Source: Magnetococcus sp. DMHC-6 (lineage in GTDB: Bacteria > Pseudomonadota > Magnetococcia > Magnetococcales > JADFZT01). From it: 64,000 nucleotides of DNA. This document shows, piece after piece, positions 190 through 24,990 of the stretch. Location of the stretch: the NCBI GenBank assembly GCA_039908535.1, contig JAMOAW010000002.1, positions 25,462 through 89,461 on the forward strand, read 5' to 3'. A program made the position numbers and the translations under genes. The notes below the pieces were generated by a model, which was given only the letters and a program-made list of their open reading frames with translations, did not search any database and was not told where the DNA came from. The first letter of the stretch is position 1. Each line of letters opens with the position of its first letter.

Positions 190-2432
190 CTACTCATCAA
201 GAGTCTCCAAATTTACGGTTACATCTTGAATATTTTTTTGTTCTTCTTCTGAATTTTGTCTTAATTCCAATTCAAGCCACTTCAAACCCTCATCAATGTA
301 ATGAGGCACTTTCCAATTATTATGCTTATCATCATTATTCATCATAATCAGGTTAAGTGCAAACTCTGTTTTCTTGAATGTACGTGACCAAACACGATTA
401 AACAATGCTTTTGCTATATCATCTAACGATTTTTTTTTCGAAACGCTTAAATTTAGTTTTTTGCGTGAGGAATGCTGACACCAATCTAAATTTTCCAATG
501 CAAACATCTCTTCAAATGTACGACCTACCAATAGTTTACTGTTTCCTTCCCAGGAAATTAATTGGTTAGTTTGAAAGGCTATGCGAATTTTTTTTGTAAT
601 GATTTTTTCATCCTCTTTTAATGATAGAAGTTCTTCGATCTTTATTGTATTCAATAATAACTTTTCAATGGTTTTATTTGATGTTATAGCACCAGGTGTT
701 GTTGTTTGACATGTGCCTTTAGGTTTTTTAGTATTTCCTTCTCCCTTTTCGGTATCTGTATTTTTAACATGTTCATGGATGCTATCTAAATCTGTAATTA
801 TAAGTGTAATAATCCCCAAAAACTCAATTAAATCTCTAAAAATATGGGCAAATGCACCACCGACTTCTAGAATACTCAAATATCGGAATTGAAGATCTTT
901 AGCTACCTTTTCGATTATTAAAGGTAACAATAACCGTTCGACATTGCCCTCTACAAGAATGGCAGCATCTGCAAAAAATAGATCACAATGGGTAAGTTTC
1001 ATGTATCGAATGAGAAATGCTTTTTCATCTTCACCAGAATCTCCTTTTTTAAATTGTGCAAGATTCAATACTCGACTATGGGAACGACATTCTTTCGTCA
1101 CCTCACGACGAAAATATCGTATAGAAGAAAAACCAGTTTCATAGAGGATATGAGGAGAATGGGTGGTAACTACCAATTGTGTTGATAATGTTTCTCCTAT
1201 TGGCATATTCAGGCTCAATGCTTTAAATACTTGACGAATAAATACTTGTTGAAGTTGGACGTGAAGGTGAGCCTCTGGTTCTTCAATAATGATCAAATGG
1301 AGCGGAGGGGGGGCAGGTACTAACCTCTTTTCTTTATAGTCGAGCAATTCCAAAATCATGTAAATCATATTTTTGAACCCTAACCCATTGTATCTGTCCG
1401 GCAAAGTCATATCAGAATCGTTATTTGCATCTAATCCTGGAAGACTATAATGGACCTCTGCATTCTCCTTTAATACACTTTCTGAATAATGGTTGCCCGC
1501 ACATTAAGGCGTGGCATGGTCAGGTTGGGATGTCCCATCCCCATTTCTTCTAAAGCTTTAAAAGTTGGCCTAAAAACAGTTGAAAACATTGAATTTATTA
1601 TTTGCTCTGACTCATTAATGGCTTGCATAACTTTATAATTATTTACTTTTTCTTTGTTATGCTGTTTAAAAAAGCGGCTGAAAAGTTTTGATAGATTTTC
1701 TGAACGAACAGAAGAATGAGAGGATTCCTTATCCGTCAGATGCCTCTGTGCATCCATGACATCTACTCTAATAAGATTATTCAAGACTACTTTACATTTC
1801 TCCCCCGTCTCTTCAAGGAGCGGAAAAGGGGTATAGTTTTCCTTTTTCTTATGGCCCTCAAATTCGGCATGATCCAAAACATAATAGTGAATGGCATATG
1901 ACTCATAGAGTTGTTTTGACAAATAATCGCAAAGATTTTTAGGCCATGGATGAAAATCTGATGTTTTTTCCTTCTGGTGAATACTTATATTGTCTTTAGC
2001 TTCTTGGCTGGCATTTTTAAAATCTTCTAGCAGCTTTGTTACATTTTTTGGTTTCCACTGTAAGCGTACACCTATCTTAGTACCTGTCCATTCCAGGCTT
2101 GGTATTAGGTGGATAACATGACGTAAATCACTATCTACGATTTCAAACCACATATCCAGGGTGATACAGGGAAAATCATTCGAGTCCACCTCTTTATTTT
2201 TTAAAGCTTGGTCTCCAAGTCGGTTAAATTCCTTCCAACATGGCGCATAAAAATCATGAAGAGTAAATCGCTCCCCAGCAGAAGAGTCTTTTAAAAATGG
2301 AATAAGTACGTGAGTGGCTGAAGTTTTGCCACTATTATTAGCACCAACAAAAAAAGTTGTTTCCTTGTCCATTTCAATATGAACATCTTTTAATCGGCGA
2401 TAATTTTTAATATGAAGCGATTCAAGACGCAT
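190..2432 (-). pseudogene. OLD-family ABC-type ATPase + Toprim nuclease (class 2 OLD / Gabija GajA-like), reading frame broken once (ORFs 1470..2432 and 190..~1500)
   Basis: N-terminal ORF: MRLESLHIKNYRRL...GANNSGKTS (Walker A). C-terminal ORF: signature-like NGLGFKN, Walker B LHLIIIEEPEAHLH, Toprim Glu (ILVEGNVERLLLP) and DxD (IITDLDS). Both frames are open across ~1470-1500. A 1-nt indel there would join ...PRLNVR to GNHYSESVLKENAEVHYSLPG.... Confidence 0.7.
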
Positions 2433-2649
2433 TTTTTTTATCCATAGAGGTAATTGCAAAAACCGGTAAAAATGGAAATTTATGGACCTTTTGAATCACA
2501 AAGGATCGTAATTTAACGTCCTTTCTGGTATTATGTGTTTGCTAAAAACGATCATAAACACAAGAAAGGACGGAAGAAAATGAATAGTCTTCGAGATGGA
2601 TTATCGCTTATTTGGAACAGAATTCAAGGGTCATTATTTCCTGAGCTTA

Positions 2650-4109: not shown

Positions 4110-5621
4110 GTGATGACATTGGACACGGCACAGAACCGGCTGGCAGGCTATGCGTTTCTGATAGAGCAATACGAGTTGAATACTTTGCCGAACTGGCACA
4201 CCTCCTCAGTCAGCCCGATGGGGACGCTACGCTCGACTATTCAGGATGGGCAGGTGGAATCCGTCTATCCCCACTCCTATTGGCCCGGAGACGGAACGGG
4301 AGACCATCTGGAGTTCGCCCTCAAGTATGACGGTGTCAATCTTGGTATCCTGTCGGCCCTTTTCGACGTGGTTCCAGCAGACGAGATAGCGGCCTGGATC
4401 AGCTCGAAACCAACCGGGAAATACGCCCGCAGGATCTGGTTCCTGTATGAATTCCTGACCGGACGGAAACTTCCGCTGCCGAATCTGATCAAGGGGAATT
4501 ACATTGAGCTGCTTGAGTCGAACCGTTACTACACCACAGCACCCGGTCGTCGCATGCAGCGTCAGAGAGTCATCGACAATCTGCTTGGCGGGAAAGATTT
4601 CTCTCCCATCATCCGGCGCACCGAAAAGCTCGCCGTCATGGAAGGACTCGACCTGCAGAAACGGTGCGAAGAGGTCGTGACCTCCTATCCACCGGAGCTC
4701 CTCAGACGGGCACTAAGCTACCTGTATAACAAAGAGACCAAATCCTCATTCGAGATCGAACACATCAAGCCGAGTGCCTCCCGGATAGAGAAATTCATCG
4801 GCTTGCTGGAGATGGCCGAGCACAGAGACTTTTGCGAGAAGCCTCTCCTGATCGACGTGCAGAACCGCATCGTCGATCCCCGATTTCAAGACACGGACTA
4901 CCGGGCCAACCAGAATTATGTCGGTCAGACTATTTCCTACCAGAAGCAGCTCGTTCACTATGTCTGCCCGAAGCCCGACGACCTCCCGGAACTGATGGCG
5001 GGACTACTCGCTGCCCATCAAGTGATGAAGGAGGGCGCGGTCCCCGCCATTATCCATGCCGCCGCCATCTCCTACGGATTCCTCTTCATGCATCCCTTTG
5101 AGGATGGCAACGGCCGTATTCACCGGTTTCTCATTCACAATATTCTGTTCCTGCGCGGCGAGATCCCGAAAGGGCTCATGTTCCCGGTCTCCGCCGCCAT
5201 GCTGAAAAATATGGCACTTTACGATCACTCCCTGAAGGCGTTCTCAAACCCGCTGATGCGGCTGGTTGAATACGACCTGGACGATCTCGGCCAAATGACC
5301 GTGCCGGATGTGACCGGACCTCTGTACAGGTACATCGACATGACCGCTCAGGCGGAGGCGTTGTATGATTTCATCAAGCTCACCATTGAGCACGAACTGT
5401 TGGAAGAACTCGATTTTCTGGCGAATTACGACAAGACCAAGCAGGCCATTCAGGAAATCGTGGACATGCCTGACCGACTCATTGATCTTTTTATCCAGCT
5501 CTGCCTGCAAAACAATGGTCGCCTTTCGGCGAAAAAGAGGGAATCGCATTTCGGGTTTCTGACCGATGACGAGTTGGCCGACATGGAAAATTCCGCCCGG
5601 GAAGGATACGCGAGGGAGTGA
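4110..5621 (+). CDS. Fic/DOC family protein (AMPylase-type fold) with long N-terminal extension
   Basis: Canonical Fic motif HPFEDGNGRIHRFL in a 503-aa ORF. GTG 4110 / ATG 4113 start. The surrounding 3660-5650 segment is visibly more GC-rich than both flanks. Confidence 0.85.
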   Translation: MMTLDTAQNRLAGYAFLIEQYELNTLPNWHTSSVSPMGTLRSTIQDGQVESVYPHSYWPGDGTGDHLEFALKYDGVNLGILSALFDVVPADEIAAWISSKPTGKYARRIWFLYEFLTGRKLPLPNLIKGNYIELLESNRYYTTAPGRRMQRQRVIDNLLGGKDFSPIIRRTEKLAVMEGLDLQKRCEEVVTSYPPELLRRALSYLYNKETKSSFEIEHIKPSASRIEKFIGLLEMAEHRDFCEKPLLIDVQNRIVDPRFQDTDYRANQNYVGQTISYQKQLVHYVCPKPDDLPELMAGLLAAHQVMKEGAVPAIIHAAAISYGFLFMHPFEDGNGRIHRFLIHNILFLRGEIPKGLMFPVSAAMLKNMALYDHSLKAFSNPLMRLVEYDLDDLGQMTVPDVTGPLYRYIDMTAQAEALYDFIKLTIEHELLEELDFLANYDKTKQAIQEIVDMPDRLIDLFIQLCLQNNGRLSAKKRESHFGFLTDDELADMENSAREGYARE

Positions 5622-13184: not shown

Positions 13185-14051
13185 TCAATATTCAACACGA
13201 CCTATTTTTATGGAACCTACACCTGAGTGATTTGCTATGACAACGTGTTGTGCATCATAAATTTTAATATTACCTGTTCCCTCTGAGCGAATCGTTGCAT
13301 CGACTGAGGTGCCATCAATCATAATATTTCCAGTTCCTTGGAGATCAATCGATAACTTATGAATCTCTCCATGCTCAACTTTTATATCACCTGTTCCATT
13401 AGAAACAATTTTTAGGTCTCCAGTGATGTGACCTATTTGAAGATTGCCTGTTCCTTGCAAGGTAATCTCTCCATCATGCAAGGCTGTAATCTCTACATCT
13501 CCATATCCAAGCATCTCCAGCTTAAAAGGGGCATCTGTCTTATTTATAGCAATTTTGGCACCAAAACTTTTAATGTTGAGTGGGAGTGAACGAGGGGCTA
13601 AAATATGAATTTTAGGAGAGTTTGCTGTAGAATTTTGATCACCAGGAAGGTTAATAGTGCCTATGGATACATTTCCACCACGAACGACAACATTTCCATT
13701 AATCTGCACATTTGAGGAAGTTATTATAGAAGAATTGGAAGATTTACCCATCTCCTTGAGTGTGACTTGCCCGCCTTCAGTATGTGTATGAATAGCGTTA
13801 ATGGCGTTTGTATCCCCTAAAAATTGGAAACGAATATCTTCACGTTGCTCTGTATCTATTTGAATTTGTGCAGATTCAGCCTGAATTTCGAGTTTATTTC
13901 CATTTAGAGTAATATTTTTTTCATCCGCAAAGAGTGGATTATGTAAGAGTGAAAAAAATGTGATAACATTTAATAAAATAAACTTACTTCGTGCAGATAA
14001 ATAAGTCATTAAAAAAAAATTTTTTTGACTTTTTTTGTTAATTTTTTCCAT
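13185..14051 (-). CDS. Secreted DUF2807/GIN-domain beta-helix protein
   Basis: Repeated LQGTGNLQI / SNGTGDIKV / LQGTGNIMI / SEGTGNIKI / HSGVGSIKI rungs. Hydrophobic N-terminus (alternative start ATG 14009). Confidence 0.65.
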   Translation of the reverse strand: MEKINKKSQKNFFLMTYLSARSKFILLNVITFFSLLHNPLFADEKNITLNGNKLEIQAESAQIQIDTEQREDIRFQFLGDTNAINAIHTHTEGGQVTLKEMGKSSNSSIITSSNVQINGNVVVRGGNVSIGTINLPGDQNSTANSPKIHILAPRSLPLNIKSFGAKIAINKTDAPFKLEMLGYGDVEITALHDGEITLQGTGNLQIGHITGDLKIVSNGTGDIKVEHGEIHKLSIDLQGTGNIMIDGTSVDATIRSEGTGNIKIYDAQHVVIANHSGVGSIKIGRVEY

Positions 14052-14103
14052 TTTTTATCTCTATATTTTAATTTTGATTAAATTTGAATAAAACAAAATT
14101 TTT

Positions 14104-14706
14104 CTATTTTACTGATTTATCTGATCCAATTAAGGGAAGATTCGTCTCTTTCAAAACAATTCCTGGTGCAACATGAGATGGGTTAGCAATGTGGGGCACA
14201 GGGGATATTAAAGGTTGCATCATGTATTTTTCACTATTTTCCTTTTTTAACAAATCTTGCATATCTTGTCCAACGATAGCATAAAAATTTTCCATTTCAG
14301 TAAGGATTTCTTTGTCAAAAAATGTTTTTTTGGCCTTTTCAAGCAATTCACCCATAGCATCATAAGCGGCGCGTGCTGCTCGAATATTATTGCGTTTGCG
14401 AGATATGGTGACCAGACCAGATTGCGCTTTGAGTTGATAGGCTAAATCAGCCGTATAAAGAATTTGGTTATAGATCTTTTCTGCATCATCCAGTTGGTTT
14501 TCACGTTCCATAAAATGGCCTAGTTGTAACAGTGTCATACTGTTTTTCGGACAATGATGCATAATTCTATTAAGAAGTTCACGATTTTTAGTGACGCTTA
14601 AGTTTTGTACATCAGGAACTTGAAAACAAGGATCAAAAGCAAAAGCCGTATTCACAATAAAGAACAGAAGGATGCTATTAGCAAATCCACATAATTTCAA
14701 AAACAT
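14104..14706 (-). CDS. Secreted TPR-like protein (paralogue of 14802..15410)
   Basis: Signal peptide ending AFAFDPC. Shared blocks with its neighbour: HHCPKN..LLQLG...E.Q.DDAEKIYN....DL.Y.L.AQ.GL..I.R...IR.A. 200 aa. Confidence 0.6.
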   Translation of the reverse strand: MFLKLCGFANSILLFFIVNTAFAFDPCFQVPDVQNLSVTKNRELLNRIMHHCPKNSMTLLQLGHFMERENQLDDAEKIYNQILYTADLAYQLKAQSGLVTISRKRNNIRAARAAYDAMGELLEKAKKTFFDKEILTEMENFYAIVGQDMQDLLKKENSEKYMMQPLISPVPHIANPSHVAPGIVLKETNLPLIGSDKSVK

Positions 14707-14801
14707 GCTCTATCTTTCGTTATATTTATAATTTCGCATAGGGTCAGCGATTTATAAAGCAAATAAAATGAGGATTTGATTTGTAACAAGACTATAATAT
14801 A

Positions 14802-15410
14802 TTACTTAAAATTAACACCTCCAAAACCAACATCTGACTTATCATCAACTGCAACAGTTCCGATATCAGTTTTATCAGAATATTTATTACTAAATCCACG
14901 TGTATTATTATATGGTTGCAATGTATTTACAGTTCCACGATTTTGTTTCATTCTATCCAAAATATTATGTCTTAATTTTGTATATGTATTCTCAGCTTTA
15001 TTAAGAGCACTCATATTTGAAAAAGATTTCAAATTTTTGGCTTTTTCAATCATGACACCCAAGGCCTCATTGGCCTCTTGAGCTTTACGAATATCACCGC
15101 TTTGACGCGCTATGGAAGCCAATCCAGTTTGAGCCATGAGGCTGTAGCTTAAATCAGGACCCGTAACAACACGGTTATAGACATTTTCTGCTTCTTCTAA
15201 ATTTCCCTCTTGCTCAAACATAAATCCAATTTGAAGTAAAGCTTCCTGATTTTGTGGACAATTATTAATAATTTTAGAGAGTAGGGAGTGGCTTTGAATA
15301 GGAGTTAAACCTTGCTGATTAAATTGATCGTTACAGGGATCAAATGCTAATGCAGAATTAATCATGCAAAAGAAAATGATAAAGCTCATTATTTTGCAAA
15401 AATTATTCAT
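14802..15410 (-). CDS. Secreted TPR-like protein (paralogue of 14104..14706)
   Basis: Signal peptide ending ALAFDPC. Collinear similarity to the previous ORF. 202 aa. Confidence 0.6.
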   Translation of the reverse strand: MNNFCKIMSFIIFFCMINSALAFDPCNDQFNQQGLTPIQSHSLLSKIINNCPQNQEALLQIGFMFEQEGNLEEAENVYNRVVTGPDLSYSLMAQTGLASIARQSGDIRKAQEANEALGVMIEKAKNLKSFSNMSALNKAENTYTKLRHNILDRMKQNRGTVNTLQPYNNTRGFSNKYSDKTDIGTVAVDDKSDVGFGGVNFK

Positions 15411-15441
15411 TTGATTTGACCCCTTTATGTGTTATTGCCGT

Positions 15442-16155
15442 TTATTTATACACATGAAACTCAATTCGGCGGTTTTTTGGATTTTCGGGGTCTAAACCCG
15501 CAATAGGTTTCGTTTTTCCCATACCAACGGGAACCAAACGCCAATCTTCAATGCCATTACGGACCAGATAATCTTTGACCGACATGGCCCTTTGCCAAGA
15601 CAATTGACGATTCATTTCATCATTCCCAACCGCATCCGTGTGTCCTTCAACAATTAAAGTAGAATTTTTTGCAGCTGGTGATTTGAGTGCTTCTGCCATA
15701 GTGTTCAAATAGTCATAGGTTGCAGACGATAAAGCTGCAGAACCACTTTTAAACTGTATCGGAAAGGAGACTCCCCCAGAAGAACCGCGTTCTGACTTCG
15801 TTTGAGATAATTCAGAGGGCACAGCTTGTTTCGCACTCTCTTTCGCACTCTCTTTCGCACTCTCTTTCGCACTCTCTTTCGCACTCTCTTTCGCAACTTC
15901 ATTCGAGGGAGCAGGGGAGGGGGTGGTTTTAAATTGAATAGATCTTGTTTTACGCTCTTTCTTAGGCTCAGAAGAGGGCTCAGAAGGAGGAGTAGCCGCA
16001 GAATCAAATAAAATATTTACCAATTCAGAAGCCTCTGGTGCTTTTTCATAAACTTTGGCATCACTCACATCACCCCCGATAACTAAATTTGGAGATAATA
16101 TAGAAGCACTCAGAACAATTGCGAATGATAATTTTAAAAAATCTTTTTTTATCAT
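15442..16155 (-). CDS. OmpA/MotB-type peptidoglycan-binding protein with (AKES)n linker
   Basis: C-terminal LIVEGHTDAVGNDEMNRQLSWQRAMSVKDYL...RRIEF (OmpA_C). N-terminal signal peptide. Confidence 0.85.
   Translation of the reverse strand: MIKKDFLKLSFAIVLSASILSPNLVIGGDVSDAKVYEKAPEASELVNILFDSAATPPSEPSSEPKKERKTRSIQFKTTPSPAPSNEVAKESAKESAKESAKESAKESAKQAVPSELSQTKSERGSSGGVSFPIQFKSGSAALSSATYDYLNTMAEALKSPAAKNSTLIVEGHTDAVGNDEMNRQLSWQRAMSVKDYLVRNGIEDWRLVPVGMGKTKPIAGLDPENPKNRRIEFHVYK
15833..15895. repeat. 12-bp in-frame tandem repeat GCACTCTCTTTC x5 (+ partial), encoding (AKES)n in the OmpA-like gene
   Basis: Five perfect units read directly at 15833-15892. Confidence 0.9.
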
Positions 16156-16199
16156 CTTTTCCCTCTTGGTATATTGCTAGCAAAAGCATTAAATTTGAA

Positions 16200-17729
16200 T
16201 TATTTAATGGTCAATTGTAATTTTCCATCAACCACTGGAACATTTAAAGCAGAAAATGAACTGCTTATTTTGTTCATATTATATCCCTGAATGACTTCAA
16301 GATCAGCACCCGATATCACGCTCGGCAATTTGTTCGTCACATCTGTTGTTGCAGCAAAACATTGAATCGTTTCTACCGAGTTTGGATAATCAAAAACAAT
16401 ACTAAATGGCATATTACCATCTGGAAGTTCAATTCCGCCCTGCTTAAGAAGAGCATTTTGGTTAAATCGATTAGGAAAAATTTTAATGACAGAATGATTC
16501 CCTTGCTCCCAAAAGCAATAGGTATATGCATTCTCCGTTAGGTTTAGAGAGATGATCATACTCTCGCCCACTTTATATTCTTTTTTGGGTGAAGATAATA
16601 AAATTTGTAAATTTGTACTTGTTGCTTGATTGCCTCCTCTGGCTTCAATTTCACGGACAATTTTAATGTGTTTAGCAATATTGTCCGCAATAGGTATGTT
16701 TAAATATGCCTGAAGCCAAATATTCGACGGAACATTATCCAATGAATTGGCTGTGTAGTGTATATTTTGTTTCTTGAAAATCACATTAACAGCATCTATA
16801 GCCTTAGAAGAATTTCGTGGATATTCGTCTTGAAAATATCCATATGCACCCAATATTAAGTCACCGATAGCCGCCGATCCATCCTCATTGATACTGTCTT
16901 CAATTTGACGAACCAACCTTTTATCAGGTTCAGATCCTGGTATAAGACGCCAATAGGGTACAGCAAACTGTCGTCCTAATAGTTGTACAACACTTACTTC
17001 TACAAGTTGTCGGATGGCCGCATGTACACCTTGTGACTTACTGGCACTGCCAGACATTCCAATCCCAGATCCAAAAATAGAAAATGACCAACCGGATGAT
17101 TTACTCTCTTTTTTAATATTAATCGTATTGGAGGTAAGGGCTCCAAGGGAGGTTTGGGAAACATAGTCCAACATGCTAAAATCAATGGTCATACGTGATT
17201 CATTAAAATCGTTATCATTAGACGTCCCTGCATCTACAGAAGAATTCCCAATAGGTATAGAAATATCCATATCTTTTGAGGTGCCTTTTGTAGAAACATC
17301 TTTATCAAATTCAGTAATTGCACCACTAATAACAAAATTGGGGATTTTGGTAAGCCGAATGCCTTGGCGAATGTTGATTTCATTGCTCATATATTGAGGA
17401 TCGTAAGGAACATTGACAATAGGCATCCCAATCTTATTGACTGCCGTCGTAACCATGCGCGTAATATCACTAGGCAATCCAGCACCGGCCGTATCATTGT
17501 TAATGGGTTTTATCTGAAAGTACATGGGATTAGATGATGAGCGTCCTGTGTACGTCCGCAAAAGTTTACCAAAATTGTATATTACTTCATCGTAATCTGT
17601 TTGACGGGTTGTTACGGCTTCCGTTTCTTTCATTTCAATCACTGGCGCATCTGTGGCACAACCCGTTAATCCCAGCGGATAGACTCCTAAAATGGCAACC
17701 AGATGAAATAATCTCCAATTTTTTTTCAT
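16200..17729 (-). CDS. Outer-membrane lipoprotein, CsgG/HfaB-like N-terminal domain fused to C-terminal DUF4384
   Basis: Lipobox LGLTGC. IKPINNDTAGAGLPSDITRMVTTAVNKIG and FVISGAITEFDKD resemble CsgG-family blocks. The C-terminal KVGESMIISLNL..AYTYCFWEQGNHSVIKIFPNRFN fits the DUF4384 pattern. Confidence 0.6.
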   Translation of the reverse strand: MKKNWRLFHLVAILGVYPLGLTGCATDAPVIEMKETEAVTTRQTDYDEVIYNFGKLLRTYTGRSSSNPMYFQIKPINNDTAGAGLPSDITRMVTTAVNKIGMPIVNVPYDPQYMSNEINIRQGIRLTKIPNFVISGAITEFDKDVSTKGTSKDMDISIPIGNSSVDAGTSNDNDFNESRMTIDFSMLDYVSQTSLGALTSNTINIKKESKSSGWSFSIFGSGIGMSGSASKSQGVHAAIRQLVEVSVVQLLGRQFAVPYWRLIPGSEPDKRLVRQIEDSINEDGSAAIGDLILGAYGYFQDEYPRNSSKAIDAVNVIFKKQNIHYTANSLDNVPSNIWLQAYLNIPIADNIAKHIKIVREIEARGGNQATSTNLQILLSSPKKEYKVGESMIISLNLTENAYTYCFWEQGNHSVIKIFPNRFNQNALLKQGGIELPDGNMPFSIVFDYPNSVETIQCFAATTDVTNKLPSVISGADLEVIQGYNMNKISSSFSALNVPVVDGKLQLTIK

Positions 17730-18151
17730 TTTACTTCGATTCCTTGCGTATGAACGGTCGTATTGATCTTTTTATTACGAATGTTGGTCCCTTTAAGAAC
17801 ATCCACCTGTCCTACATTAACATCAGGGTCTTCACCAGCAAGTTTGTTTATTTTTATTTCTTTATTGGTATCTACATAGTTGACAATTTTCTTTTTATTG
17901 TTATTATTATCAATTGTTTGGTTGCAAAGATTGTATGTCTTACCACCTGCCTGTTTTGTTTGACGTATTTGCTCATTTATTTCTTTGTCATCGCAGTACT
18001 GATAGGATGTATCCCCATAAGCACCCGAATTTTTTTGCATCTCTTCGCGTTGCTTAATCAAATTACCTTGTAATGAGCCAGCCAAGAGAGATCCAGACGT
18101 AAGCACGATGACACTCAATATTGTAGCAAATTGAACAAAAATTTTTTGCAT
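17726..18151 (-). CDS. Small secreted protein, translationally coupled to the CsgG-like gene
   Basis: 141 aa with a signal peptide (..LLAGSLQG). Its stop overlaps the downstream ATG (ATGA at 17726-17729). The C-terminal VNVGQVDVLKGTNIRNKKINTTV resembles the repeat of the four small paralogues. Confidence 0.6.
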   Translation of the reverse strand: MQKIFVQFATILSVIVLTSGSLLAGSLQGNLIKQREEMQKNSGAYGDTSYQYCDDKEINEQIRQTKQAGGKTYNLCNQTIDNNNNKKKIVNYVDTNKEIKINKLAGEDPDVNVGQVDVLKGTNIRNKKINTTVHTQGIEVK

Positions 18152-18229
18152 TTAGGTATCCCCATACACGCCAGAAAGTAACTTTTGAGATTTATATCCC
18201 AATAGTTAAACATAATATCACATGTAAGA

Positions 18230-18544
18230 TTAGTGAATCTTTACGCTACCAACATTCACTTGAGATTTACCAGAACTCGTGATATCGCCTGTCTCAGATT
18301 CTGTTTTAATCTCACTGTTTTGCATCTTTGTTCCTCGACCAATATCGACACTGGATGCATTAACCGTTGAAGTGTCAGAAGCTTTAATATTGCCGGTTTT
18401 CGCACTTGTCTCGATTCTGCTGTTCTGAATTGTCGTACCTGGACCAGAATTACTCTCTTCGCTTAACGATGTAAGACTTCCAGCACATAAAGGATTCATG
18501 ACAGCAAAAACAGCTACCAATGTAATGGCAGATACCAATTTCAT
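18230..18544 (-). CDS. Small secreted two-repeat protein, paralogue 1
   Basis: Signal peptide, then two ~33-aa repeats TTIQNSRIETSAKTGNIKASDTSTVNASSVDIGRG / TKMQNSEIKTESETGDITSSGKSQVNVGSVKIH. Confidence 0.7.
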   Translation of the reverse strand: MKLVSAITLVAVFAVMNPLCAGSLTSLSEESNSGPGTTIQNSRIETSAKTGNIKASDTSTVNASSVDIGRGTKMQNSEIKTESETGDITSSGKSQVNVGSVKIH

Positions 18545-18663
18545 GTGAAAACTCCTTATTCTGTTTGGAGGATGAATAGTAGAATATATATTAAATAAAA
18601 ATCATGTATAAAATATACAATCTTTACGCCAATAAATTGGCGTAAAGATTGTTCATTGATTGA

Positions 18664-18972
18664 TTATTGAATCTTGACACCACCCGCATTGACTTCTGAC
18701 TTATCAGAAGCTTTGATATTGCCAGTATCTGAACTGGCTTTGATTTCAGAGTTTTGAATCGTGGTGCCACGTCCAATCTCAACAGTGGCTGCTCCGACTT
18801 TGGATTCGTCTGAAGCTTCAATGTTGCCAGTTTTGGCATCGGTAGTAATTTTGGTATTCTGAATCGTGGTCTCTTTGCCACCACTACTAATGGCCGTTAT
18901 GCTGTCCGCAGAGGCAGAACCAATGACAACAAAAAGAGATGTAACAAAAGCAATGGCTGATAACGTTTTCAT
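18664..18972 (-). CDS. Small secreted two-repeat protein, paralogue 2
   Basis: MKTLSAIAF... start (ATG 18972). Repeats TTIQNTKITTDAKTGNIEASDESKVGAATVEIGRG / TTIQNSEIKASSDTGNIKASDKSEVNAGGVKIQ. Near-identical at DNA level to paralogue 3. Confidence 0.7.
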   Translation of the reverse strand: MKTLSAIAFVTSLFVVIGSASADSITAISSGGKETTIQNTKITTDAKTGNIEASDESKVGAATVEIGRGTTIQNSEIKASSDTGNIKASDKSEVNAGGVKIQ

Positions 18973-19113
18973 TTCGTTGCGTACTCCCCACAAAGATAGA
19001 TAATTTGTTGCTTCAACATTTACTACATGACAAAAAAATATTCATTCATCTAATTCAAATAAAGATTATATTTCATACACTGAAAGTCAGCGTATGAAAT
19101 ATATTATATTTGA

Positions 19114-19425
19114 TTATTGAATTTTGACACTACCAGCATCAACTTCTGACTTATCAGAAGCATTGATATTTCCGGTATCTGATTTGGCCTTTATTTCAGA
19201 ATTTTGAATTGTCGTGCCACGTCCAATCTCAACAGTGGCTGCTCCGACTTTGGATTCGTCCGAAGCTTCAATATTTCCAGTTTTGGCATCGGTAGTAATT
19301 TTGGTATTCTGAATCGTGGTCTCTTTGCCGCCACCACTACTAATTGCAGTTATGCTGTCTGCAGAAGCAGAGCCGATGACAACAAAAAAAGATGCTGCAA
19401 AAGCAATTATTGGAAACTTTCTCAT
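19114..19425 (-). CDS. Small secreted two-repeat protein, paralogue 3
   Basis: 103 aa with the same architecture. Long stretches are identical to 18664..18972. Confidence 0.7.
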   Translation of the reverse strand: MRKFPIIAFAASFFVVIGSASADSITAISSGGGKETTIQNTKITTDAKTGNIEASDESKVGAATVEIGRGTTIQNSEIKAKSDTGNINASDKSEVDAGSVKIQ

Positions 19426-19601
19426 TTTGTTTTGTACTCCTTTGAAGAAGGAAAGGAACGATAGTTTGTAAATATAATTATATTACATCATAAGTATAGC
19501 ATACATTGTGTTGCGATGTCAAGATCGTTTTTAATTTGATTAATATATTTAATTATATATTTAATTTTTTTAAAATAATTATATTAATATAAAATATAAT
19601 C

Positions 19602-19750
19602 CGAACGATGCCCTGCGGAAAAAAAATCAAATGCCAAACCCTGGGGGATGAATCCCCCAGACCCCCTCTTTTTTTTAAAACTTAAAAAAAAGAGGGGGTC
19701 TGGGGGGCAGTTCTCCGCCCCCCAAAGGTCTTGATTTTTTCCGATACATT
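19602..19750 (+). repeat. REP/MITE family 2 copy R3
   Basis: CGAACGATGCCCTGCGG...CCCTGGGGGATGAATCCCCCAGACCCCCTC T-run / A-run GAGGGGGTCTGGGGGGCAGTTCTCCGCCCCCC...CCGATACAT. Confidence 0.85.
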
Positions 19751-19759
19751 AAAATTTGA

Positions 19760-20068
19760 TTATTTAATCTTTACACCACCAGCATCAACATCTGAATTTC
19801 TTAATGCTTTAATATTTCCTGTATCAGAGGTTGTCTTAATATCTGAGTTTTGAATTTTTGTGCCACGTCCAACTTCAACGATAGCCGCTCCAACTGTGGA
19901 ATTGTCTGCACCTTCAATATTACCGGTTTTAGCCTCTGTATTCAAAGTAGAATTCTGGATCGTGGTTGTATCGGTTGAACCACCTGAACTAAGTGCAGTT
20001 AGACTATTAGAAAAGGCCGATGTTATAAAAATAAAAGTAGAAACAACGAATGCAAATAATGAGAACAT
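19760..20068 (-). CDS. Small secreted two-repeat protein, paralogue 4 (5' end abuts or overlaps a REP copy)
   Basis: MFSLFAFVVSTFIFITSAFS..., then TTIQNSTLNTEAKTGNIEGADNSTVGAAIVEVGRG / TKIQNSDIKTTSDTGNIKALRNSDVDAGGVKIK. ATG 20068..20066 lies inside the GAACAT terminus of REP R4. Confidence 0.6.
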   Translation of the reverse strand: MFSLFAFVVSTFIFITSAFSNSLTALSSGGSTDTTTIQNSTLNTEAKTGNIEGADNSTVGAAIVEVGRGTKIQNSDIKTTSDTGNIKALRNSDVDAGGVKIK

Positions 20069-20223
20069 AATGCCCTGCGGGAAAAAAAAATCAAATGCCA
20101 AACCCTGGGGGATGAATCCCCCAGACCCCCTCTTTTTTTTAAAACTTAAAAAAAAAGGGTGGGGGGAATTGGGGGGTGGCTCTGCCCACCCAAAGGTCTT
20201 GATTTTATTTTTCCAATACATAA
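20063..20223 (+). repeat. REP/MITE family 2 copy R4
   Basis: Full-length copy GAACATAATGCCCTGCGGG...CCAATACAT. Confidence 0.85.
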
Positions 20224-20250
20224 ATATTTTCATTCCATACTCCATAATAT

Positions 20251-20375
20251 GAACATAATGCCATTCGGGCAGAAAATAAAAAACAAAAAACTGAGGATTG
20301 AATCCCCAGACTCCCTCTTTTTTTAAATATTAAAAGAAAAGGGTAGGGGATTGAGGGGAGCAGTTCTTCTCTGAT
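20251..20375 (+). repeat. REP/MITE family 2 copy R5 (diverged), tandem to R4
   Basis: GAACATAATGCCATTCGGGCAG...CTGAGGATTGAATCCCCAGACTCCCTC.... It ends just before the caspase gene stop. Confidence 0.7.
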
Positions 20376-20383
20376 TGATAAGC

Positions 20384-22882
20384 TTATTCTTTAACTACCT
20401 GAAAATCCATCCCAGTGGAATTAAAGACAGGTGTTTGGTCATCTGTTTTATATTTATATACCAACAAAGGGACTTCTTGATGCATGTAGGTCAGTAATTC
20501 TTTGACAAAAATTGTCCCGTCTTCAGGTTTTTTGTCGGCTTGACCATCTAAACCAGTCAATATCGAATAGGTAAATATACCGTGTCCTAGCTCTGTCAAC
20601 TCATTAGCAGCTTGATTCCCCGTGGTGGCCGTCGCAATATGAATTCCTGTTGCACGCGCCAATTTTGCCATAGAACGTTGCTTATCAAAACTGGCAAACG
20701 CAGGCAAAGCTGAACCAGAGTAACACGCATCAATAAGGAGTAAAATTTTTTGCGCACCTATGTGGGCGATATATGATTTGAGTTCATCTGATGAAAGACC
20801 TTGCGTAGTAACAGATTTTTCCTCACCATCAAAATTGGTTGGAATAAAATACCAACGATTATTCATAGACACACCATGTCCTGCAAAATATAAAACAACC
20901 GTATCTTCAGGGGGAATGCGTTGTAGAGAATCCAAAGAAGTTTCAATCTGCTTTTTGGTCGCTTTTTGGTCGTAAATTTCGTATGTTGTTATATTATTGA
21001 AAACATTTATATATTTTTTTAAGAAAAAATCAAGAACGCCTTTGGCATCTAACACAGAAAAATCAAGATTCATTTCTTGAATTTGGTATTGATTGATCCC
21101 TACAACAAAAATATGCAATTTTGGTTTTATAGAAGCTTGGGTGACAGAGTCACCACCCGTAGGTGGTGATGCCACTTCTGTAGACGCAGATTTGGCATCT
21201 GGTGCTGTCGGTCTCTGGTTGGATTTTTCATCTTTGAGCTGATAGGATAATTTTTCTTCAATCGGTTCGCTCTCTATAAGATCTTTACTTAAACCAACTG
21301 TTTTTAGTACATTTTGTCCATTTACCAATTCGACACGATAAACCGTCTTTAACATTTCACCACTATCTTCAGTCAGATTTTCAGATGAAATAATTCGGCT
21401 TTTATCAATAATTTTTTGATTATGAAATAATCGGATCTCTTGAATTCCGCCGCCCTGATCCAGAGCATCAATACTCACATCCACCTCTTTAGAATAGCCG
21501 TTGGCATCAGGATTAACTGGTTTGATGATCATTTTAGGAGGCAGATAAAAACCATCGGATACCACCGGGACAACCGTGTTTTCTACAACATCTTTTTTTG
21601 CGAGAAGTTTACCAAGTAGGGCAGGGCGATAATAATTTTCAAGAAAGCCATCTAAAGCGAAAGAGTGTTGATCGCCTGCCCATTGAATGGCATCTAAACG
21701 ATCTTCAATGGCACCGTCTAAGGTTCCATCAAAATAGCCTTCTGGTGTGACAACCGCCCATCCCTCTTGCATAGAAACCAGACGTGCGATCTCCTTACCC
21801 GTTTCTTGATTCCAAACACGAAGCGTTTGGTCTGTTCCACCAGAGATCAACCAATCCTTCCCAGAGGCAAAAGTGACTGCATTGACCCCTTTTTGATGTC
21901 CCTCTAGGCGACGTATTTCGCGTCCATCGGAAACATTCCAAATGCGAAGGGTTTTATCCTGGCTGGCAGTGGCGAGGAAACGATGGTCTTGCGTAAAAGC
22001 CACTCCATTCACTTTTTCTTCATGCCCCGTGAATGTGGCCAATTTAGAACCGTCTGCAGGGTTCCAGAGATATGCTTGACCATCCTCGTGTCCTGTCACC
22101 AAAAATCGACCATCTGATGACCAAGCAATGCACAGAACAGCTCCTGTCGAAGCGTTCCATTCTAGAATAGGTTTTCCATCCATGGACCAAATTTGCACAC
22201 GACCATCTGATCCCGCCGTTGCCAATGATTGATTATCAGGAGCAAGGACCAAACCGTTTATTTGTTTTTCATGCGTTTGGATTGTTGACAATGGAGAAGC
22301 TGTTCTGAGATCCCAAATGCGTAGGGTGCCATCTAGGCTGGAGGTAATCAGTCGTTTTCCGTCGCGGGTAGGAGCCACACCCGTCACACTTCCGGTGTGA
22401 CCACGAAACGTAAGGAGGGTTTCTCTGGTCTCCATACGCCATAAACGCGCCGTACCATCCTCACTCCCAGTCACCAAAAAAGCTTTGCCAGCAGGGGCCA
22501 TCGACAAATTTTTTGGTAAAGGCGTTCCAAAAAACTCTTCCAAATTTTCAACAAAGGCCACACTGCGTACAGGCTGATTATGACCTGTGAGATTGACCTC
22601 TCTCTGACCATTATCAACATTCCAAACTTGAACTGCATGATTGCCGCTGGCACTTGCAAACCAAGTACCATCAGGACTAACAGCCACATCGTTGATGGCA
22701 GAACTATATCGAGATTGAATTTTAAACGTGGGTTTAAAAATTTGTCGTGTGTTTTTTTGTATCGCTTTGACAATGGTTTTGCTGGAATTGAACATGGCTG
22801 GACGGCTCTCGGCTGGTTGGCTGAAAAAGAGCAATCCTGTCAAAATAGATATGAAGCAAAGGTAGACCAAAAAGCGTTTCAT
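20384..22882 (-). CDS. Exported WD40-repeat protein with C-terminal caspase-like (peptidase C14) domain
   Basis: Signal peptide. Multiple WD40 blades (..H..V..VAF.PDG..L.T.S.DGT.R.W..). C14 dyad contexts VVLYFAGHGV (His) and KILLLIDACYSGS (Cys). 832 aa. Confidence 0.85.
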   Translation of the reverse strand: MKRFLVYLCFISILTGLLFFSQPAESRPAMFNSSKTIVKAIQKNTRQIFKPTFKIQSRYSSAINDVAVSPDGTWFASASGNHAVQVWNVDNGQREVNLTGHNQPVRSVAFVENLEEFFGTPLPKNLSMAPAGKAFLVTGSEDGTARLWRMETRETLLTFRGHTGSVTGVAPTRDGKRLITSSLDGTLRIWDLRTASPLSTIQTHEKQINGLVLAPDNQSLATAGSDGRVQIWSMDGKPILEWNASTGAVLCIAWSSDGRFLVTGHEDGQAYLWNPADGSKLATFTGHEEKVNGVAFTQDHRFLATASQDKTLRIWNVSDGREIRRLEGHQKGVNAVTFASGKDWLISGGTDQTLRVWNQETGKEIARLVSMQEGWAVVTPEGYFDGTLDGAIEDRLDAIQWAGDQHSFALDGFLENYYRPALLGKLLAKKDVVENTVVPVVSDGFYLPPKMIIKPVNPDANGYSKEVDVSIDALDQGGGIQEIRLFHNQKIIDKSRIISSENLTEDSGEMLKTVYRVELVNGQNVLKTVGLSKDLIESEPIEEKLSYQLKDEKSNQRPTAPDAKSASTEVASPPTGGDSVTQASIKPKLHIFVVGINQYQIQEMNLDFSVLDAKGVLDFFLKKYINVFNNITTYEIYDQKATKKQIETSLDSLQRIPPEDTVVLYFAGHGVSMNNRWYFIPTNFDGEEKSVTTQGLSSDELKSYIAHIGAQKILLLIDACYSGSALPAFASFDKQRSMAKLARATGIHIATATTGNQAANELTELGHGIFTYSILTGLDGQADKKPEDGTIFVKELLTYMHQEVPLLVYKYKTDDQTPVFNSTGMDFQVVKE

Positions 22883-22965
22883 GGTTTTGTTAGCTTCCCC
22901 CCATAAAAAGAATCTTTATCTTTAATAAAATATTAAAAAAAATTTTTTTTGTCAAGAATATTTAC

Positions 22966-23838
22966 TTAATTTTTAAAATTTTTTATTAAATCAAAATTTG
23001 CATGTATTTTAGAAAGAATTCGGGGCCACTCCTTTACCCAGCAACATTGATGATCAAAACTGGCGATAACACGTACTGAAATGGTTTTTGGGTCAGCAAA
23101 TTTATTTTGAAATGCATACGTCACTTCAGGAGGTACAATACGGTCCTGTGCTCCAATAAAATGAATTTGCGGTATATGTTGTAATGTCGAGGTATCCTCT
23201 GCTGGATCAAGGGAATCTGGCATACTAGAAACTCCGTGCCATTTGGTCCACATAGCGACATCTAAATTGGCGGCGATGGTCAATAACCAAGCAATATCCT
23301 TGCGCTCCCTCGCAATCAAGGTCGCCACAGTACCTCCTCCAGAATAACCAACCAGAGCAATGGAATCCGTTTTTGTTTGGGCTTTGACAACATCAATAAC
23401 CCTTGCCATAGCCACAATCACCTCCTGCGAATAACGGTGAGAAGTCCAATAGCGAACATCACACTCTTTTGAAATATTATCAACAAATTGACAAGGTCTA
23501 CTCACATATAAAACCTTGGATGAGGGATCCTGAAGAGCCAATTTTAAAGCAATCGGATTGGTCGGAGAGGGATTTTTTGAAGGTGTCCTTTGATTTAGCC
23601 AAGCCCTCCCATCGCCTTCAATGTAAACAACGAGTAAATCACTTGGTTCTTTTAAAATACGCAAAAAACCTCGTAGATGAAAAAAACCTGTTTCCCATTC
23701 TACCGATGAAAATCCACTGTGCTGTGCTAATTCAGAGGCTTCTTGCCATCGCACCATCCAAGAAGGGGTGCAACTCACGCCCCATATGCTGCATAAACAG
23801 TATATAAAAATTTTTCGCCATTTGTTAGAAAAATACAT
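22966..23838 (-). CDS. Alpha/beta-fold hydrolase, probable lipoprotein
   Basis: N-terminal signal with ..WGVSC. Nucleophile elbow LVGYSGGG. 290 aa. Confidence 0.6.
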   Translation of the reverse strand: MYFSNKWRKIFIYCLCSIWGVSCTPSWMVRWQEASELAQHSGFSSVEWETGFFHLRGFLRILKEPSDLLVVYIEGDGRAWLNQRTPSKNPSPTNPIALKLALQDPSSKVLYVSRPCQFVDNISKECDVRYWTSHRYSQEVIVAMARVIDVVKAQTKTDSIALVGYSGGGTVATLIARERKDIAWLLTIAANLDVAMWTKWHGVSSMPDSLDPAEDTSTLQHIPQIHFIGAQDRIVPPEVTYAFQNKFADPKTISVRVIASFDHQCCWVKEWPRILSKIHANFDLIKNFKN

Positions 23839-24051
23839 TATTTAAATCCTGATTTTCCCCAAATATTTTTTGTTTAATTTTTTTTATTCCAAAATCATGA
23901 CGTACAATTTTTTTAAAAAAACTTAACATATCTTGACATTTATATCAATATTTGATAAATTCTATATAAACATAAAGAAAAAAAATAAAAAGATGGCGTT
24001 TCTGACGCAATTAGGGTGAACGATTCTTCAATAATATGGAAGGATAGTGCT

Positions 24052-24990
24052 ATGTTTAAATATAAAATTTTATTTTTATCTATTTTTTTTGTTGTATTAA
24101 CTCTCTCCATGACGGTTCATGCGGCACCTACTCCTGTAGAATTATTAATGCAGGTAAAAGGAGATGTTTTCTACAGTCATGAGGGGGGAGAATGGAAAGC
24201 CGTCCACCGTAATAAATATCTATTTCCTGGCGATCAGATTAAAACTGAAAATGGGGGATCTGGTCGTCTTATTAACCAAAAGAAACAACAGTACCGCACC
24301 TTAGGTCCCAATACCCTTCTTAAAATTAACGATGACCAAGCCTCGTTGGTCTCTGGGACTTCCCTTTCAGATTTTCAAGCCTTAGATGAACTCTCAAGCT
24401 CAGTCACCAATTTGTTTTCCAATTCACAAATGTATACCACAAAACGACGCAGTATCTTACACAAAGAGACGATCCATTTGGAAACCATCCAAAAAATAAC
24501 TTTGTCCAATACATATCCAGAGTTAATTTGGGAAGAGCTCGGCCCACAATACAGCTACCGATTAACCATAGATGATCATAGTGTCGATATCCATGGAACA
24601 AACAATGAAATCGTCCGATATAAAATTTCCGAACTTTCGCCCGGAGAACATCCATACAAGGTGGAACTCTTGAAAGATGGCAAGGTGATCGAAAGCCCAA
24701 AAAAAGCAACAGTCATTCGTTGGCTATCTCATGATGAGATGGAAATCATCTCTCAAGAAATGGAAAAAATTCGGCATTTAATCCCAGATGACGATTTAAT
24801 CCTGGCCAGTTATTTGGAAGAAAAAGGGTTGGCTGTCGCGGCTATGGACATGTACCAAAAATATTTCAAAGAAAATCCTGAGGACGTGGATATGCGTCCT
24901 ATGATGATTCAATCTTATTATAACCTAAAATTGACCAATCTAAGGAAAAAAGAGATGATCAATTTTAGCTCGAGTGAAAGTGGAAAATAA
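24052..24990 (+). CDS. Secreted protein with FecR-like N-terminal domain
   Basis: MFKYKILFLSIFFVVLTLSMTVHA signal. VKGDVFYSHEGGEWKAV..NKYLFPGDQIKTENGGSGRL resembles the FecR domain pattern. The ORF maximum starts at 24016. Confidence 0.5.
   Translation: MFKYKILFLSIFFVVLTLSMTVHAAPTPVELLMQVKGDVFYSHEGGEWKAVHRNKYLFPGDQIKTENGGSGRLINQKKQQYRTLGPNTLLKINDDQASLVSGTSLSDFQALDELSSSVTNLFSNSQMYTTKRRSILHKETIHLETIQKITLSNTYPELIWEELGPQYSYRLTIDDHSVDIHGTNNEIVRYKISELSPGEHPYKVELLKDGKVIESPKKATVIRWLSHDEMEIISQEMEKIRHLIPDDDLILASYLEEKGLAVAAMDMYQKYFKENPEDVDMRPMMIQSYYNLKLTNLRKKEMINFSSSESGK

Follow-up and report, generated by a model that had tools for sequence, protein, structure and literature searches.

The stretch of DNA analyzed here, referred to below as the window, comprises 64,000 nucleotides from the metagenome-assembled genome of Magnetococcus sp. 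DMHC-6. Between positions 13185 and 23838 it carries 12 successive open reading frames (ORFs) on the minus strand, all of which encode exported proteins judging from their translations. Among them are genes for a CsgG-like outer membrane lipoprotein, for a 141-amino-acid (aa) secreted protein, and for four small repeat proteins, S1 to S4 (Table 1), which we consider to be putative components of a secretion-and-assembly system related in its logic, though not in its subunits, to curli.

The N termini consist of a basic n-region, a hydrophobic core, and an AxA-type site, as read from the translations (e.g., AFA/FD, ALA/FD, ASA/DS, and LLA/GS, with the slash at the site). The CsgG-like protein has the lipobox LTGC and the hydrolase a noncanonical GVSC, with Sec-type signal peptides elsewhere. 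A sequence-only reading of the same DNA had reported 12 exported ORFs on this strand, and both coordinates and translations agree, with two start codons corrected. The start of S4 was moved to M60 of the listed ORF because the 59 upstream codons are a translated 80-nucleotide (nt) element resembling repetitive extragenic palindromic (REP) sequences, and for the DUF2807 protein the 15th codon (M15) is the probable start. The protein types named in that reading (DUF2807, two tetratricopeptide repeat [TPR]-like paralogues, OmpA, DUF4384, and WD40 plus caspase) were likewise recovered in Pfam and NCBIfam scans, the hydrolase match being weak.

Table 1. Genes of the 12-ORF block, in window coordinates
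Product	Position	Strand	Supporting match or remark
DUF2807 (GIN-type) beta-helix protein	13185..14051	-	Pfam E 7.5e-9
TPR-like paralogue without the C-terminal motif	14104..14706	-	36% identical to 14802-15410, E 9e-39
TPR-like secreted protein	14802..15410	-	Ends with one subunit-like rung and GFGGVNFK
OmpA-type peptidoglycan-binding protein	15442..16155	-	Pfam OmpA E 2.6e-21
CsgG-like outer membrane lipoprotein, 509 aa	16200..17729	-	Pfam DUF4384 E 1.2e-12; Foldseek and hhalign matches to CsgG
141-aa secreted protein	17726..18151	-	Diverged subunit by profile comparison
Subunit paralogue S1, 104-aa precursor	18230..18544	-	Two 35-aa repeats; C terminus GSVKIH
Subunit paralogue S2, 102-aa precursor	18664..18972	-	Two repeats; C terminus GGVKIQ
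Subunit paralogue S3, 103-aa precursor	19114..19425	-	All-beta AlphaFold2 model
Subunit paralogue S4	19760..20068	-	Start corrected; bracketed by REP-like elements
Exported WD40-caspase	20384..22882	-	WD40 E 2e-67; caspase NF047832 E 5e-19
Lipoprotein-like alpha/beta hydrolase	22966..23838	-	Weak Pfam matches only

The block is also, as had been noted, more AT-rich than its flanks. Its GC content is 0.381, compared with 0.447 for the remainder of the window, which ranks it 5th lowest among 267 segments of equal size. GC at third codon positions is 0.21 to 0.37 within the block, against 0.53 to 0.54 for ispDF and 0.39 for metG, and the bias is therefore more than an effect of amino acid composition. 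We considered AT-richness as a trait of the system and ruled it out: in the most closely related locus found (L001, see below), the homologous cluster has a GC content of 0.579 between flanks of 0.574, so that AT-richness is peculiar to the DMHC-6 copy.

The four small repeat proteins are 60 to 94% identical in an alignment to S3, and each contains two copies of a 35-aa repeat that reads T-T-I-Q-N-S-x-I-x-T-x-A-K-T-G-N-I-x-A-S-D-x-S-x-V-x-A-x-x-V-x-I-G-R-G. The mature proteins, of ~80 aa, are rich in Ser, Thr, Gly, Ile, Lys, Ala, and Asn and contain no Cys, Phe, Trp, or Tyr. The family has no Pfam match, including to the curlin repeat (PF07012) and DUF2807, and in hhalign profile comparisons it showed no relation to CsgA (probability 5%, from the signal peptide only) and to CsgB (0.1 to 0.9%).

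An AlphaFold2 (AF2) model of mature S3 is entirely beta, with a mean predicted local distance difference test (pLDDT) score of 79.9 and values of 80 to 89 over residues 11 to 81. Strands at 15-17, 20-26, 30-32, 37-40, and 43-45 are followed by the same five exactly 35 residues on, and because of this recurrence the simplest reading is that S3 would form two stacked, in-register beta-solenoid rungs. The prediction is thus of two identical strand patterns and not of a globular monomer. The best-ranked Foldseek matches, none of them significant, were all solenoids: HET-s (E 0.86, template modeling [TM] score 0.37 to 0.41), HELLF, left-handed beta-helices, FapC (E 7), and pectate lyase.

A recent tandem duplication gave S2 and S3 and included their upstream regions; the DNA of the two copies is 91% identical in the coding part and 82% identical in the 5' part (region 18660 to 19440). 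The four tandem copies have promoter-like and terminator-like sites of their own among them, namely, a promoter-like site for S3 at 19493 to 19522 (11/12 matches) and terminator-like hairpins with a 16-bp stem after S2 (18617 to 18652) and a 17-bp stem for S3 (19067 to 19103). S4 is bracketed by 80-nt REP-like elements at 19619 to 19698, 20083 to 20162, and 20268 to 20347. As a separate observation, a REP-like GC-rich palindrome, CTGGGGG-N4-CCCCCAG, occurs four times in the window (5838, 13058, 31900, and 57001) against 0.05 expected; the element around S4 carries a version of it with a 5-nt loop and makes the false ORF extension described above.

Behind its lipobox, the CsgG-like protein comprises an alpha/beta domain (about residues 45 to 265), a helical domain of the peptidoglycan-binding type (about 270 to 364), and a DUF4384 beta-sandwich (374 to 509). 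The protein is 100% identical to one listed for the DMHC-6 assembly. Its AF2 model, built on 11 homologues (pLDDT 72.9), contains two strand pairs of unusual length, 132-147/175-188 and 194-207/214-229, and confidence is low in the loop at 145-175. The top 15 Foldseek matches in the Protein Data Bank (PDB) are all CsgG structures (4uv2, 4uv3, and 6lqh; E 6e-6 to 1e-3, probability 1.0); the non-channel proteins FlgT, GNA1162, and PelC rank below them (E 1.5e-3 to 1.7e-2), and HpaA is also among the fold matches. When compared with Escherichia coli CsgG by hhalign, the lipoprotein family profile aligned over 169 columns (probability 84%, E 7.5e-6), from the lipobox Cys through GAITEFD (matched to GSIIGYE) into the first membrane-hairpin region, where an insertion at 143-178 was aligned with TM1 of CsgG.

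CsgG contributes two membrane hairpins per protomer to a 36-stranded barrel in the nonamer. The long strands and the low-confidence loop of our model are as might be expected of an isolated protomer of this type. Additionally, the column-averaged hydrophobicity of the family alternates at 152-160, 180-186, 195-205, and 214-225, as expected of strands with one lipid-facing side, and the lipobox Cys is near-invariant. While PDB sequence searches with the single sequence and with the profile gave no match, the Verrucomicrobia member (locus L010) scores 34.1 bits against the Pfam CsgG model, above the gathering cutoff of 20.8, and another member, P0008, scores 20.6 bits. Among 100 family members, Pfam detected DUF4384 in 28, PG_binding_1 in 16, and CsgG (E <= 1e-3) in 14, with TPR fused to the lipoprotein in ~6 and OmpA in 1.

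Because of the Foldseek ranking, the hhalign alignment, the hydrophobicity pattern, and the passing score of the L010 member, we assign the lipoprotein to the CsgG superfamily as a divergent member on comparative grounds. This agrees with the proposal in the sequence-only reading of a CsgG-like N-terminal half fused to DUF4384, and CsgG is the best structural match. A protein of this kind may form a pore.

The gene for the 141-aa protein ends in an ATGA overlap with the lipoprotein start codon, confirmed by reading the sequence directly, in accord with the translational coupling proposed earlier. In homologues from five lineages, a conserved N terminus (K-N-R-A..Q...Y-x-Y-x-D-D) is followed by at least two rung-like repeats. 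The family profile matches that of the subunits (hhalign probability 91.5%, E 8.7e-7) but showed no relation to CsgF (0.3%) or to CsgB. We therefore view the protein as a subunit that has diverged and that has an additional N-terminal part, and as a candidate minor or nucleator subunit.

To gather related loci, we used the lipoprotein as the query against encoding contigs, 185,579 species genomes, and metagenomes, which gave 22 nonredundant loci after duplicates were collapsed (designated below by L numbers). Of the 18 with at least 700 bp of upstream sequence, 16 have a 141-aa-family gene in the same orientation as the lipoprotein gene and upstream of it, usually within 50 bp, or 1.2 kb away in Campylobacterales. 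A subunit-like gene was detectable in 14 of the same 18 with a cross-phylum profile; a repeat hidden Markov model from Magnetococcales only was too narrow, and the cross-phylum alignment (A2) was needed. The triad of lipoprotein, 141-aa-family protein, and subunit occurs in Magnetococcales, Sulfurimonas and other Campylobacterota, Verrucomicrobia, Candidatus Moduliflexus, and Maridesulfovibrio, and thus in many unrelated genomes. None of the three findings that the sequence-only reading had named as refuting its proposal was therefore obtained. Subunit repeat number varies from 2 to 7 and repeat period from 31 to 39 aa across these lineages. Maridesulfovibrio sp. FT414 is a cultured organism with a complete genome (CP104854.1), in which the triad, located around 1,096,000-1,100,000, is surrounded by housekeeping genes only. 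Its subunit contains seven 36-aa repeats that are nearly perfect, and TPR is fused to its lipoprotein.

Word-index searches returned 11 relatives of the lipoprotein and, for a subunit, self-matches only. The family seemed rare until 1.84 billion cluster representatives were scanned in full with HMMER, which yielded 1,049 lipoprotein-family matches with E <= 1e-3, of which 265 had E <= 1e-30. Those members whose names we looked up were all called "hypothetical protein" or "DUF4384 domain-containing protein." We found no Pfam or NCBIfam family model and no paper describing the system in the literature on CsgG-like proteins, DUF4384, and CsgG with beta-solenoids, which accords with the earlier suggestion that it is undescribed; NanoporeDB surveys CsgG-like pores generally without treating gene clusters.

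The subunits have a C-terminal motif in common, G-G-V-x-I-K. The strict pattern G[GS][VIL]x[VILF]G?[KRQH], anchored to the last residue, marks 20 of the 1,345 ORFs in the loci, none of them from outside the clusters; apart from subunits, they comprise one 141-aa-family member and TPR-like proteins from the window and from L001. The FecR proteins beside Sulfurimonas-type clusters also end in one subunit-like rung.

Some loci contain further genes near the triad. The Campylobacterales clusters encode a conserved 95- to 96-aa secreted protein between the 141-aa-family gene and that of the 7-repeat subunit (L004 8520-8810, L008 8765-9052, and L009 2414-2701), with no counterpart in the window. Six successive exported proteins, none with a Pfam match, are encoded downstream of the Verrucomicrobia triad (L010 2719-7695) and may be further accessories. 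The delta-proteobacterial and Moduliflexus-type loci share a large conserved protein of ~500 to 1,100 aa starting HFAYPN...GCGR (L011 3846-7163 and 7160-8324, L021 1124-3325, L022 3012-4817, and L028 633-2797) that was assigned to no family, and small putative sigma/anti-sigma-like genes lie upstream of their triads.

Outside the triad, the genes of the block differ in how often they recur. OmpA recurs in L001, L011, L021, and L022, and OmpA-DUF4384 fusions adjoin the triad in L011 and L021. Since TPR, OmpA, PG_binding_1, and DUF4384 are fused to the lipoprotein in other members of its family, the separate OmpA and TPR genes can be tied to it as well. The TPR-like protein 14802-15410 has an orthologue in L001 (11620-12255, E 9e-20) that ends in GGVDLR. 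The linker of the OmpA-type protein also contains a fivefold tandem KESA repeat (window ~15800-15862, minus strand).

The WD40-caspase retains intact H/C motifs (AGHG and DACYSG). Exported caspase-family proteins recur beside the lipoprotein family, as CHAT in L003, L014, and L015 and as Peptidase_C14 in L007, L021, L025, and L028, which makes an accessory role for the WD40-caspase probable. No such protein is present in L001, in the Campylobacterales short form, in L010, or in Maridesulfovibrio, and the WD40-caspase is thus a plausible but dispensable accessory. We also looked for known anti-phage defense systems; PADLOC found none and gave only generic OmpA (ZorB/MotB models), WD40 repeat, and caspase matches.

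The DUF2807 gene is present in L001 and L002 and was seen in Magnetococcales clusters only, which suggests a lineage-specific accessory. The string GTGNI is indeed common to the DUF2807 protein and the small proteins, as had been pointed out for TGNI. The kinship that this implied was not supported, however: the subunit family and the DUF2807 protein of the window gave an hhalign probability of 1%, and because no relation is detectable by profile the string is no evidence of kinship. The idea that the small proteins are truncated DUF2807 rungs was rejected on the same result; the small proteins also lack a Pfam DUF2807 match. The hydrolase has no counterpart in any related locus examined, and nothing beyond adjacency ties it to the other genes. 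The sequence-only reading had treated all 12 genes as one system; the conserved triad and its recurrent accessories sustain this in part, and the hydrolase and the DUF2807 gene do not. Judging from these neighborhoods, the functional unit would be the triad plus variable accessories.

Several known systems invite comparison. Curli (type VIII secretion; E. coli csgBAC-csgDEFG) also combine a CsgG-superfamily outer membrane lipoprotein with Sec-exported repeat subunits encoded nearby, variable repeat number, predicted beta-solenoid subunits with Asn, Gly, and Thr at the turns, and a second, diverged subunit-like protein, which is the logic of CsgB. Unlike the 19- to 23-aa strand-turn-strand units of curlin, the repeats here span 31 to 39 aa and have some five short strands each; the conserved motif lies at the very C-terminal end, whereas CsgA has an N-terminal targeting segment; and the channel protein has extra peptidoglycan-binding-type and DUF4384 domains, with OmpA, TPR, and caspase/CHAT accessories. 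No cluster protein matched CsgE, CsgF, or CsgC in Pfam and NCBIfam scans, and these scans together with the hhalign comparisons agree with the earlier statement that CsgA, CsgB, CsgE, and CsgF are not recognizable. Because curlin repeats, CsgE, and CsgF were looked for and are absent, this is not curli in the strict sense.

The Caulobacter holdfast anchor depends on HfaB, a homologue of CsgG. HfaA and HfaD require HfaB for their export and assemble into SDS-resistant multimers. There, too, a small secreted protein gene lies directly upstream of the CsgG-like lipoprotein gene. The exported Hfa partners multimerize, as the subunits here are predicted to do. The amplified repeat subunits, different accessories, and absence of an evident polysaccharide-adhesin link set the present clusters apart. 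No cluster protein had an Hfa-named Pfam or NCBIfam match, in libraries whose Hfa model content is unverified. The Fap system of Pseudomonas (FapA to FapF) likewise groups in one operon the genes for a dedicated outer membrane exporter, for an amyloid subunit made of repeats and its minor nucleator paralogue, FapB, and for the cysteine protease FapD; its exporter FapF, however, is a trimeric beta-barrel and not CsgG-type, its protease is C39-like rather than caspase/CHAT, and the FapC fold match of S3 was not significant. HET-s(218-289), the top-ranked fold match of S3, contributes two rungs per molecule, one from each repeat, to a beta-solenoid that polymerizes through stacking; as it is a fungal cytoplasmic prion and the match is nonsignificant, the likeness is an analogy only. 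The sequence-only reading had invoked the logic of curli or Fap, and this stands as regards a CsgG-like channel protein, repeat subunits, a diverged subunit, and recurrent accessories; for the fibre and the pore, it is a prediction.

Taken together, we favor a curli-like, non-curli outer membrane secretion-and-assembly module, with a probability of roughly 0.55, on the basis of sequence comparison, two monomer models, and gene neighborhoods. The lipoprotein is similar in fold to CsgG, the parts are homologous to one another, and their synteny extends across phyla; from these we infer the pore, the passage and polymerization of subunits, and all accessory roles. In such a module, Sec would export S1 to S4, and the subunits would pass unfolded through an oligomeric outer membrane channel of the lipoprotein, whose two long amphipathic hairpins would correspond in position to the membrane hairpins of CsgG. 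Once outside the cell, a subunit would fold into a two-rung beta-solenoid with open edges, and head-to-tail stacking would produce a fibre. The ATGA coupling would supply the 141-aa protein in a fixed ratio to the channel, where it probably nucleates or anchors the fibre, the role of CsgB (with CsgF) in curli. The channel may be tied to peptidoglycan through its own peptidoglycan-binding-type domain and the OmpA protein. The TPR-like proteins may handle subunits in the periplasm, and one, because of its single subunit-like C-terminal rung, could dock on subunits or on the fibre end. The WD40-caspase, as a recurrent accessory, could possibly mature or remodel subunits.

It is important to point out that a number of observations weigh against this interpretation. 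The Pfam CsgG score of the window lipoprotein is 19.1 bits, below the cutoff of 20.8; its structural similarity to CsgG is modest (TM 0.36 to 0.47 on the target, 11 to 13% identity); the second CsgG hairpin falls outside the hhalign alignment; and lipoproteins of the CsgG fold without a channel role exist (FlgT, PelC, and GNA1162). The S3 model drew no significant Foldseek match. S1 to S4 are highly charged (K+E+D ~21%), lack the aromatic and Q/N-rich character of curlin, and may be soluble rather than amyloid-like. Two loci, L007 and L025, have no detectable subunit or 141-aa-family gene. Finally, most of the accessories (OmpA, peptidoglycan-binding, TPR, DUF4384, and caspase) are periplasmic types and would also fit a purely periplasmic assembly.

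This last point leads to an alternative that we consider unlikely but worth serious attention, namely, a periplasmic envelope scaffold in which the lipoprotein is a non-channel ring or adaptor at the inner face of the outer membrane (compare FlgT/FlgP, PelC, and GNA1162) and the repeat proteins form a periplasmic lattice held to peptidoglycan by OmpA and PG-binding domains. FlgT, GNA1162, PelC, and HpaA are all among the fold matches of the lipoprotein, its PG_binding_1, OmpA, TPR, and DUF4384 partners are all periplasmic modules, and the pore is a prediction. However, the CsgG E-values are 100 to 1,000 times better than those of the non-channel relatives, which also lack the insertions aligned with the first CsgG hairpin and the alternating hydrophobicity, and the layout of subunit genes and channel gene mirrors that of curli and Hfa.

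Alternatively, secretion might occur without a fibre, the exported beta-helical proteins being soluble or surface-bound monomers or short oligomers, such as adhesins or mineral- or ion-binding proteins. The charged, Thr/Ser-rich subunits without aromatic residues would suit this explanation, and homologues with 5 to 7 repeats could be stable monomers. A 70-residue two-rung solenoid, on the other hand, is unlikely to be stable alone because it has two open edges and little core, and templated stacking is suggested by the conservation of a diverged subunit next to the channel gene and by the single-rung accessories; we therefore regard export of free-standing proteins as improbable.

We hold it to be quite improbable that the cluster encodes a protease-controlled outer membrane pore with a role in cell death, conflict, or signaling, in which a caspase or CHAT protease cleaves DUF4384 or another domain to open or activate the pore and the repeat proteins are cofactors. 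Such an arrangement would account for the recurrence of caspase or CHAT neighbors in eight lineages, for the occurrence of DUF4384 in the lipoprotein, OmpA proteins, and a caspase alike, and for the FecR proteins and putative sigma/anti-sigma genes of some loci. It would leave the amplified repeat subunits unexplained, and the triad occurs without protease or DUF4384 in Campylobacterales, Verrucomicrobia, and Maridesulfovibrio and likewise in the closest relative, L001; nor did PADLOC match any system. Finally, genes for unrelated exported proteins might have come to lie side by side in an AT-rich island by chance, as the isolated hydrolase, the Magnetococcales-only DUF2807 gene, and the local AT-richness of the DMHC-6 genome might suggest. 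This is highly implausible and is contradicted for the core genes by the recurrence of the triad and several accessories in the same order across phyla, although it could hold for the hydrolase.

Returning to the secretion-and-assembly module, a more specific version can be offered only tentatively, and we think it rather doubtful as a whole. The clusters might represent a second widespread class of CsgG-dependent surface fibres, with HET-s-like subunits of two or more rungs unrelated to curlin, a C-terminal G-G-V-x-I-K rung serving as a portable docking tag that lets TPR and FecR proteins join or cap the fibre, and caspase or CHAT proteases maturing or remodeling the assembly. That the Magnetococcales system supplies an extracellular filament, for example, the 24 fibrils within the sheathed flagellar bundle, is pure speculation.

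To our knowledge, no system with a CsgG-type channel has been studied other than curli and Hfa. If the module exists as proposed, a third such system with unrelated subunits, its own candidate nucleator, and other accessories would show that the CsgG channel is a general platform for the export of self-assembling beta-solenoids. The functional-amyloid field would gain a subunit architecture with a natural repeat range of 2 to 7, and CsgG-like pores would gain an additional group of interest for nanopores. As for annotation, the lipoprotein profile matches no fewer than 265 protein clusters with E <= 1e-30, under "hypothetical" or "DUF4384 domain-containing" names as far as members were looked up. 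The recurrent exported caspase and CHAT proteins also raise the question of their role in the periplasm. Because Maridesulfovibrio sp. FT414 is cultured, with a complete genome and a bare triad, the idea is directly testable.

Beyond the block, a divergent gene at 24016-24990 (plus strand) encodes the magnetotaxis protein MtxA (Pfam MtxA_IG-like 2e-32, MtxA_C 1e-26, and DUF7354 5e-26) and is tied to the cluster by adjacency only. A magnetotaxis-specific function was considered on account of this neighbor and rejected as a general explanation, as the triad is present in Sulfurimonas, Verrucomicrobia, Moduliflexus, and Maridesulfovibrio, none of which are known to us as magnetotactic. Elsewhere in the window, an OLD-family nuclease (AAA_15 plus TOPRIM) is split into two ORFs, 190-2459 (minus strand) and 4110-5621 (plus strand), in an AT-rich stretch (GC 0.35 to 0.37) adjoined by a Fic-domain protein, and this region may be a degraded defense island. 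A 1,255-aa protein encoded at 50066-53833 (plus strand) combines Ser/Thr kinase, PEGA, TPR, and FGE-sulfatase domains.

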